DNA from: a virus
Length of the DNA: 21,941 bases
Strand: one strand, 5' to 3'
Virus genome (UHGV): UHGV-0105323
Part shown: positions 7,441 to 7,769 of the stretch, one piece after another
Position numbering within the stretch: the first letter of the stretch is position 1
How the letters are laid out: each line of letters starts with the position of its first letter
The notes under the pieces: generated by a model
The model's input: only the letters and a program-made list of their open reading frames with translations
Database searches by the model: none
Told to the model about the DNA's origin: nothing
Program-made: the position numbers and the translations under genes

Positions 7441-7623
7441 ATGGAAAAGTATAAACGAATTCTGTTGAGGTTGACTATGAAAAACGGCCTTGAACTGAAA
7501 GCGCCTGTAACTGATGACATCAGCAGAGCACTGGCTTTTGCCATTAAGTGGGTGGCGGTCGGTGTTGCTGTGTCCCCGATGCTGTATGGGCTGGCAAAAC
7601 TGGTCATTGCGTTGAAATCGTGA
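7441..7623 (+). CDS. Small protein (60 aa) with C-terminal TM helix
   Basis: Start at the internal ATG (MEKYKRILL) behind AAGGGAGA; C-terminal hydrophobic segment WVAVGVAVSPMLYGLAKLVIAL. Confidence 0.4.
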   Translation: MEKYKRILLRLTMKNGLELKAPVTDDISRALAFAIKWVAVGVAVSPMLYGLAKLVIALKS

Positions 7624-7637
7624 AGGGAGGATTAAGC

Positions 7638-7769
7638 ATGTCAGACAAACTCATAACGCTGGCGAAGATCCTCTGTGTAATTGTCGGCATTTCATTTTCA
7701 CTAATGCTGGTTGCCATTTTCTTTTCCACCGCCTGGCGAGTCCTGACGTTATCGGGACTGGTGGGGTGA
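7638..7769 (+). CDS. Small membrane protein (43 aa)
   Basis: ATG preceded by strong AAGGGAGG; product [43 protein letters not shown] is a single TM helix. Ends 8 nt before Rz. Confidence 0.4.

Follow-up and report, generated by a model that had tools for sequence, protein, structure and literature searches.

The lysozyme gene (R) and the spanin gene (Rz) are separated by two small membrane-protein genes in the virus genome UHGV-0105323, of which one strand of 21,941 nucleotides (nt), hereafter the window, was analyzed. The region forms part of a late operon in a lambdoid prophage of the phage 21/Shiga toxin (Stx) type. The first open reading frame, ORF1 (7441-7623, + strand; ATG 7441 to TGA 7623), encodes a tail-anchored small membrane protein of 60 amino acids (aa), and the second, ORF2 (7638-7769, + strand; ATG 7638 to TGA 7769), encodes a strongly hydrophobic single-pass membrane peptide of 43 aa. 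An initial annotation of this stretch had proposed two small single-helix membrane ORFs between the endolysin terminator and Rz, and an ORF scan together with AlphaFold models bore this out at exactly these positions. Comparison of related sequences indicated that ORF1 and ORF2 are genuine, conserved genes. They are of the membrane type, lack a promoter-like site of their own and are packed against Rz, a gene context that favors a lysis-linked role over a self-contained moron or a toxin/antisense-RNA module. From this we infer a function in lysis and membrane partners for both proteins, and we tentatively favor, at slightly less than an even chance, the reading that they are non-essential accessory modulators of lysis in the inner membrane.

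Coding evidence, expression signals and predicted proteins

A total of 165 related loci were gathered from viral contigs and annotated genomes. The ratio of nonsynonymous to synonymous polymorphism (pN/pS), a pooled pairwise estimate from closely related alleles that carries no tree correction, was 0.14 for ORF1 in frame versus 0.92 and 2.12 when the two remaining frames of the + strand were read, and 0.45 for ORF2 versus 0.83 and 1.32. The control genes of the same loci gave 0.125 (holin), 0.10 (lysozyme) and 0.55 (Rz). When ORF1 of Escherichia coli was compared with its Salmonella orthologue, the ratio was 0.27 in frame and 1.2 and 2.4 off frame. The 18 DNA alleles of ORF1 collapsed into 8 distinct proteins, while ORF2 was looser (23 alleles, 18 proteins), its N-terminal half being nearly invariant at the protein level. 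Conservation at orthologous loci, which the initial annotation had named as a check, held for both reading frames, with 20 of 21 distinct homologous segments intact for ORF1 and 27 of 29 for ORF2 (47 of 50 together). Nine ORF2 alleles have changed the ATG to ATA, and in these an in-frame upstream ATG, overlapping the stop of the preceding gene, takes over.

Translation, the other check named there, is documented for a homologue of ORF2. Hücker et al. (2017; PMC5597208) reported XECs191 of E. coli O157:H7 Sakai, which they called "novel," among intergenic ORFs found to be translated by ribosome profiling (Ribo-seq), and XECs191 is the ORF2 homologue in its antirepressor-linked form (see below). 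In LB, it gave 30.0 reads per kilobase per million (RPKM) for RNA and a RIBO RPKM of 12.6, with a ribosome coverage value (RCV) of 0.43 and a coverage of 0.55; an inner-membrane protein was predicted, and the classifier verdict was "real" (PMC5597208). The signal is low because the culture was uninduced.

A 126-aa ORF on the opposite strand (7227-7607, − strand) overlaps ORF1 and the terminator. It was set aside, as its pN/pS of 0.22 is expected of a frame sharing third codon positions, and we judged it a by-product of sense coding constraint. The sense frame of ORF1 scores lower (0.14 versus 0.22) and carries the start signals. We preferred the sense frame because it agrees with the direction of the operon and with the start signals, and because an ORF2 homologue has published ribosome footprints. 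Long antisense ORFs are also present opposite the ORF1 homologues in Salmonella.

The near-consensus ribosome-binding site that the initial annotation assigned to ORF2 proved to be the strongest of ten starts scored. This Shine-Dalgarno (SD) sequence, AAGGGAGG (7623-7630, + strand), overlaps the ORF1 stop, ends 7 nt before the ORF2 ATG and pairs with the anti-SD at −11.3 kcal/mol, the remaining nine starts ranging from −8.5 to +0.6 kcal/mol. ORF1 is preceded by AAGGGAG (7431-7437, + strand; 3-nt spacer), which forms an anti-SD duplex of −8.4 kcal/mol and is kept in nearly all alleles, and the corresponding energies for the holin, Rz and lysozyme starts were −7.4, −6.8 and +0.6 kcal/mol. A GTG at 7408 as the start of ORF1 (71 aa) is unlikely, since this codon lies within the terminator tail and the orthologues keep ATG 7441 with its SD. 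The genes are closely spaced (14 nt between ORF1 and ORF2; 7 nt between ORF2 and Rz), and the final codons of ORF2 (GGTGGGGTGA) hold the SD-like sequence of Rz.

An intrinsic-terminator-like hairpin follows R (7375-7407, + strand), with a stem of 14 pairs, 6 of them G-C, and a T-rich tail (GTGTTTCT), 33 nt upstream of ORF1. One stem position alternates between G-U and A-U across alleles, and pairing is retained. A scan for the sigma-70 consensus found no promoter-like site on the + strand between this terminator and ORF1, and promoter-like sites in the region as a whole numbered 2, versus 4.0 expected by chance; one of them, inside ORF1, is weak, lies on the minus strand (7477-7448) and is within chance expectation. 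The ORF2-Rz interval, only 7 nt long, yielded no terminator. Having a terminator upstream and no promoter-like site of their own, ORF1 and ORF2 are thus late genes rather than an autonomous moron, and by analogy with lambdoid biology they would be read by the Q-antiterminated late transcript along with the lysis cassette.

AlphaFold modeled ORF2 as a single helix spanning residues 2 to 38, with a predicted local distance difference test score (pLDDT) of 89. Its hydrophobic 19-mer has a Kyte-Doolittle (KD) value of 2.87 and a summed Hessa dG of −3.6, similar to the Rz anchor (2.59 and −2.05). The protein probably has the N-in/C-out orientation of the Rz membrane anchor, because lysines at positions 4 and 10 favor a cytoplasmic N terminus. 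In the ORF1 model, residues 3-13 form an N-terminal helix of low confidence, and a loop leads to a C-terminal helix of 35 residues (25-59; pLDDT about 90), the hydrophobic core of which is weak (KD 1.88, Hessa +4.4) and near the signal-anchor-release (SAR)-like segment of the lysozyme (1.67 and +5.3). Neither protein is spanin-like: ORF1 has 2 residues beyond its helix and ORF2 about 10, and no lipobox was found in either.

The ORF1 sequence consists of a basic N-terminal part, a core motif, MKNGxExxAPVT, and the C-terminal helix, which carries FAIKWVAVG...SP..YG.AKL. Invariance of F33, A34, I35, K36, W37, A39, V40, G41, S45, Y49, G50 and A52 within this helix suggests, as a reading of the alignment, specific helix-helix contacts or a membrane partner rather than a generic anchor. 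The core of the family starts at M13, which is nearly invariant and is the residue at which short homologues begin. A candidate internal start (7467-7479, + strand) consists of GAGG at 7467-7470, a 6-nt spacer and ATG 7477, encoding M13, and would yield a 48-aa form; GAGG or GGAGG is found 6 to 7 nt upstream of M13 in clades whose peptides differ at this spot. The N-terminal extension, YKRIL[LM]RLT or YNRISVEAN, is kept in frame even where gene callers begin at M13. To judge from these signals, ORF1 may be made as two isoforms, from M1 and M13.

Architecture of the R/Rz junction and relatives of ORF1

In lambda, the spanin genes directly follow the endolysin gene, which agrees with the expectation of the initial annotation that they usually do so; in the lineage studied here the R/Rz junction is a regular swap site that takes ORF1, an antirepressor gene or an insertion sequence (IS). 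The forms of the junction were counted over 155 loci in which both genes and the R-Rz interval could be placed, and in all 155 ORF1 and ORF2, where present, lay between R and Rz. The commonest form (about 100 loci; 478-497 nt) reads R, terminator, ORF1, ORF2 and Rz. A second form (about 40 loci; about 1 kb) has R followed by a different terminator-like hairpin, a 189-aa antirepressor gene, ORF2 and Rz, with ORF2 48 to 49 aa long and starting MEWWLMISDKL or MGWLMISDKL; here (Stx-type phages; L102, L109, L138, L145 and about 40 other loci) the ORF2 ATG overlaps the antirepressor stop. In 4 loci (438 nt), R is followed by ORF1, a 28-aa ORF and Rz, and the stop of the 28-aa ORF and the start of Rz share a TGATG. 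A few loci (642-1426 nt) are rearranged or carry an IS; the class of 1424 to 1426 nt, for example L025, carries an insertion of about 930 nt at the junction.

ORF2 adjoins Rz whether the upstream gene is ORF1 or the antirepressor gene, and the distance from its end to the Rz start is 2 to 11 nt across loci. ORF2 goes with the Rz module, and ORF1 goes with the variable insert. The 28-aa ORF (MSAELIRAMAFAIRIVAIAVLVWAIRWW; L041 and L004, also L083) is a transmembrane fragment that matches the ORF1 family (phrog_4493, E 3.8e-6), and its last codons (TGGTGGTGA) form an SD-like sequence for Rz. Most loci thereby have a small transmembrane ORF, either ORF2 or the 28-aa ORF, next to Rz. In other phages, several unrelated small ORFs (L174 and L175) likewise end in IRWW before the next gene, probably because TGGTGGTGA doubles as an SD sequence.

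Between the lysozyme gene and the terminator hairpin lies a conserved untranslated stretch of about 90 nt (7285-7374, + strand), recognized by comparing phage records, alleles and Salmonella. It is conserved in hundreds of Stx phages though the downstream genes differ, the first 155 nt of the query showing 93 to 96% identity in most of 310 phage records, and it is partly retained in Salmonella (ggataacac[ga]aaatcc). Together with the terminator it folds better than shuffled sequences (z −2.5). Rfam gave no family across 7285-7770. The stretch could be a 3′ untranslated region element, a small RNA or a recombination boundary.

Relatives of ORF1 were found beside lysis genes in other hosts. In Salmonella, an HP1-type holin, a SAR lysozyme (N terminus MNSSLRNKIIAAMGGGAIAIAAAMLGG), a similar terminator and ORF1 with a GTG start are followed after 10 nt by Rz, with no ORF2. 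A prophage remnant of Yersinia enterocolitica, present on at least 1000 contigs, encodes a 49-aa member of the family, a 1-nt gap and Rz. In the myovirus L178 (2030-3565), an unrelated endolysin (phrog_181) is followed by a 50-aa ORF1-like gene and then by 68- and 70-aa ORFs with lipoprotein-type signals. This group is placed between the tail-fiber chaperone and sheath genes, a cargo site in P2-like phages, and may represent a compact lysis module at an unusual location. Overall, roughly half of the contexts of the family are lysis linked, a proportion far above the lysis share of a phage genome, and the association is not exclusive. At the end of a Salmonella prophage (L171, 3305-3668), the interval from a SASA tail-spike gene to the DUF1353 gene that follows it contains two tandem ORF1-family paralogues of 64 and 55 aa.

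A possible accessory role in lysis and its alternatives

According to the interpretation that we favor, ORF1 and ORF2 would share the inner membrane with the pinholin, the tethered SAR lysozyme and Rz and act there. With its short basic part in the cytoplasm, ORF1 would bind a partner in the membrane via its conserved helix (the GxxxS/SP/YG motif) and would tune the timing or sharpness of lysis triggering, like an antiholin or a SAR-retention factor. ORF2, which should be efficiently initiated and whose last codons supply the SD-like sequence of Rz, would act on or with Rz. We counted the recurrent adjacency of the ORF1 family to lysis genes in independent settings (Salmonella, Yersinia and the myovirus) in favor of a lysis role. 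As a precedent for small regulators of this kind, a 2026 preprint abstract reports a lysis regulator of mycobacteriophage D29 with one transmembrane domain, encoded downstream of the tape-measure gene and outside the lysis cassette.

Several observations weigh against this interpretation. Searches of Pfam, NCBIfam and PHROGs gave no sequence link of either protein to holin, antiholin, releasin or spanin families. About half of the divergent ORF1-family contexts lie outside lysis cassettes: members follow tail-fiber or tail-spike genes (L169, L171 and L173) or sit among baseplate or tail genes (L177 and L180), and the L174 member precedes a portal-like gene, an identification read from its N-terminal sequence alone. 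In the O157-type allele, a change to GAGA weakens the internal SD of ORF1. ORF2 is almost neutral when compared with its most distant allele (pN/pS 0.71), variants with C-terminal frameshifts occur, and the antisense frame with third codon positions in common comes close to the low ratio of the sense frame (0.22 and 0.50 for ORF1 and ORF2, respectively), all of these ratios being pooled pairwise values from close alleles without a tree. Finally, lambda manages without such genes, and any role of ORF1 and ORF2 must therefore be accessory.

The first alternative is that ORF1 and ORF2 are cargo unrelated to lysis, lodged in a permissive late-operon junction, where they would block superinfection (e.g., DNA entry) or alter the host membrane. 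We consider this rather unlikely. The same junction also takes an antirepressor gene or an IS insertion, presence is patchy (19% of E. coli genomes for ORF1, 32% for ORF2), ORF1-family genes occupy classic cargo positions (downstream of tail-fiber or tail-spike genes and at the end of a prophage, in one case as two tandem copies), and a small neighbor of the L174 member matches a PHROG classed "moron ... membrane protein." HK97 gp15 and similar exclusion proteins are likewise small, located in the inner membrane and encoded among late genes. Cargo of this type would, however, be left without provision for expression in the lysogen, where exclusion normally matters, as the genes have neither a promoter-like site of their own nor a downstream terminator. 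Direct adjacency to Rz or the endolysin gene in four independent settings would be unlikely for random cargo, and neither protein had a PADLOC match at E ≤ 1.

The HK97 gp15-type exclusion proteins also serve as a direct comparison. They resemble ORF1 and ORF2 in size, in having a single helix and in their patchy distribution, and relatives of ORF1 lie beside tail genes. As morons, they have a promoter of their own and are active in the prophage state, whereas no promoter-like site was found at ORF1/ORF2 and no sequence relationship exists.

A second alternative assigns ORF2 and the 28-aa mini-ORF a role in cis, with the peptide itself of little function: translating them would deliver ribosomes to the weak Rz start by coupling and, as a membrane helix is encoded, might also draw the mRNA to the membrane, where Rz and Rz1 are to be inserted. 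The signals at the ORF2-Rz boundary would fit such a leader, as the SD of ORF2 is the strongest (−11.3 kcal/mol) and that of Rz is weak (−6.8 kcal/mol), the gap to Rz is a few nt or, for the 28-aa ORF, a TGATG overlap, and the SD-like sequence of Rz is formed by the last codons of ORF2 (GGTGGGGTGA) or the 28-aa ORF (TGGTGGTGA). A predicted hairpin at the 3′ end of ORF2 (7720-7776) pairs the SD-like GGUGGGG preceding Rz, but, assessed on one ORF2 allele type, it was not significant versus shuffles (z −1.6). The weak constraint on the ORF2 protein, its tolerance of C-terminal frameshifts and the occupation of one slot by two unrelated transmembrane ORFs are also as a cis function would predict; yet coupling requires neither a constant length of 43 codons nor a hydrophobic helix, both of which are retained, and the N-terminal half of ORF2 is nearly invariant as protein. 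Salmonella has ORF1 ahead of Rz but no ORF2, and Rz of lambda does without a leader. On balance we regard a mainly cis-acting role as unlikely.

That one or both ORFs encode toxin-like membrane peptides (a type I toxin or a holin-like killer) that depolarize the membrane is very improbable. Their size and hydrophobicity are like those of small membrane toxins, and the weak minus-strand promoter-like site inside ORF1 (7477-7448) could in principle drive an antisense RNA; against this, promoter-like sites are no more frequent than chance predicts (2 versus 4.0 expected), the region has no Rfam match, the ORFs are embedded in the late operon without a promoter-like site of their own, and the hydrophobic segment of ORF1 is marginal for stable insertion. 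Open frames arisen by chance, or functionless remnants in decay, can be dismissed almost entirely, for although the ORFs are short and ORF2 diverges fast (pN/pS 0.71 versus its most distant allele), purifying selection is specific to the annotated frames, 47 of 50 distinct alleles are intact with the ORF2 start codon replaced when lost, ORF1 has relatives in Escherichia, Salmonella and Yersinia, the SD sites are strong, and the ORF2 homologue has published ribosome footprints.

Returning to the accessory lysis modulators, we compared ORF1 and ORF2 with known lysis proteins. Lambda S105/S107 and phage 21 S68/S71 are likewise small inner-membrane proteins of lysis cassettes. As in these dual-start holin/antiholins, ORF1 may give two products, from M1 and M13, the longer one with extra basic residues, and its helix, weakly hydrophobic and rich in Gly and Ala, is reminiscent of the first helix of the phage 21 pinholin, which is releasable. 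The dual-start holins differ in having 2 to 3 helices versus the one C-terminal helix of ORF1, which lacks a charged cytoplasmic C-terminal tail, and their starts are 2 to 3 codons apart versus 12 in ORF1, where the internal SD is not present in every allele. Moreover, no holin family of Pfam or PHROGs matched ORF1 or ORF2 at E ≤ 1, and the cassette already has a bona fide holin at 5767-5982, which matches PF04971.

P2 LysA and P1 LydB are non-essential antiholin-type membrane proteins whose genes lie among or beside those of the endolysin and spanins and which adjust lysis timing. ORF1 and ORF2 are like them in cassette position and membrane character, but no homology to them was detected, and LysA contains four helices. 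The P1 holin-like lysis system is treated in a review (PMC9025707). Mu gp25, a releasin (DUF2730), acts on a SAR endolysin; it is small, tethered to the membrane and largely cytoplasmic, and its gene neighbors those of the spanins (PMC9239132). In E. coli and Salmonella, ORF1 is likewise found together with SAR-type lysozymes; it has no DUF2730 match in Pfam, its anchor is C-terminal versus N-terminal in gp25, and its cassette contains a holin, which Mu lacks. Because no testable defining feature of these groups was found in ORF1 or ORF2, they were not filed as holins, releasins, spanins, morons or known defense proteins.

A bolder version of the lysis interpretation, which we put forward as speculation and consider improbable, is that the ORF1 family is an unrecognized class of tail-anchored lysis regulators, possibly with two isoforms, that dock via the GxxxS/SP/YG helix on the pinholin or the SAR endolysin and set the trigger, while ORF2 is a membrane partner or membrane-targeting leader for Rz/Rz1. 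If true, it would add two new components to the well-studied lysis system of Shiga-toxin phages, where lysis timing governs toxin release. Lambdoid lysis is usually described in three parts (holin, endolysin and spanin), and in the Shiga-toxin phage lineage toxin release depends on the lysis step. ORF2 is present in about one-third of complete E. coli genomes and in most sequenced Stx phages matched here. If ORF1 and ORF2 tune lysis, current models of lysis timing and toxin release are incomplete; if they are ordinary cargo, their recognition is still a useful annotation fix, given that most sampled GenBank records of Stx phages leave ORF2 unannotated.

Catalogue status, prevalence and neighboring features

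ORF1 and ORF2 are already catalogued and are not new genes. In profile searches, ORF1 matched phrog_1115 (E 1.4e-42, residues 1-60), phrog_4493 (E 2.6e-30) and phrog_3246 (E 4.5e-19, C-terminal part), and ORF2 matched phrog_4906 (E 2.5e-27, residues 1-43); all four are catalogued with function unknown. PGAP annotates both as hypothetical proteins in RefSeq E. coli genomes, for example in the lysozyme-Rz interval of O157:H7 TW14359 (WP_001303555.1 and WP_001280929.1). The PHROG, RefSeq and XECs191 entries correspond to ORF1 and ORF2 by direct sequence membership and by their lysozyme-Rz position in O157:H7; they are catalogue records only, with no difference in kind. The exact proteins of the window occur on 987 (ORF1) and 977 (ORF2) contigs under the names "hypothetical," "transmembrane" or "putative membrane" protein. 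What is new here is the modular R/Rz architecture with its near-constant small transmembrane ORF before Rz, the definition of a narrow ORF1 family with recurrent lysis-gene adjacency, and the link to existing Ribo-seq evidence.

ORF2 DNA was detected in 1711 of 5426 complete E. coli genomes (32%), in up to 11 copies, and full ORF1 in 1044 (19%), with a contiguous ORF1-ORF2 pair in 990. Among phage records, 276 contain ORF2, mainly Stx1- and Stx2-converting phages, and only 14 contain ORF1. Phage PhiR12_3 matched the 492-nt query region at 99.8% identity. The remark in the initial annotation that the 43-aa ORF is invisible to size cutoffs holds for many phage submissions and for the Sakai genome, where the ORF was "novel" in 2017, and does not hold for PGAP/RefSeq and PHROGs, which list it. 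In a 40-record sample of GenBank phage entries with ORF2, 23 had no feature there, 6 were unannotated and 11 gave a hypothetical protein.

Pfam, NCBIfam and PADLOC contained no match for ORF1 or ORF2, a DUF3930 line in Pfam at E 0.17 being noise. A pattern scan of species-representative genomes returned no relatives, probably because it holds one reference genome per species and the prophage is absent there. A whole-library profile search matched only 17 cluster representatives of the ORF1 family among 1.84 billion proteins, with no link to any named family, and the family is thus narrow. Two possible relationships were rejected: a profile comparison that joined ORF1 and ORF2 at 98% probability was an artifact of the fusion protein P0094 in the ORF1 alignment, the families being unrelated, and BLASTP gave no alignment that would make ORF2 a duplicated Rz anchor. 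Literature searches by accession or PHROG identifier returned nothing on either protein, and neither ORF came up in the searched passages of a paper comparing the lysis cassettes of Stx phages.

The cassette starts with a P21-type class II holin (phage 21 S-type, pinholin-like; 5767-5982, + strand), supported by PF04971 (E 9e-33) and PHROG holin families. Within the holin-lysozyme interval lies a DUF1327/YdfR-like accessory gene (5987-6517, + strand; PF07041, E 9e-42), annotated "YdfR family protein" at orthologous loci. The lysozyme gene R (6751-7284, + strand; PF00959, E 1.4e-24) encodes an N-terminal, Gly/Ala-rich SAR-like segment. Downstream of ORF2 are the i-spanin gene Rz (7777-8244, + strand; PF03245, E 2e-50) and, embedded in it, the o-spanin lipoprotein gene Rz1 (7997-8182, + strand; PF06085, E 2.5e-21).

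A gap of 233 nt (6518-6750) separates the YdfR-like gene from the lysozyme gene, the start of which has no recognizable SD (+0.6 kcal/mol). A 79-aa minus-strand ORF is located at 6450-6689, and PGAP lists a similarly placed hypothetical protein in a related genome (L004, 2089-2361). On the 3′ side of Rz, a 74-aa ORF (8268-8492) matches only positions 100 to 171 of the 291-position phrog_2571 profile and is probably a truncated gene remnant. Elsewhere in the window, Rfam matches (1566-1813, 2654-2862, and 14540-14605 on the minus strand) comprise three tRNA genes, the small RNA STnc100 and the sar antisense RNA, the last being the antirepressor regulator of P22. These hits point to a mosaic prophage.

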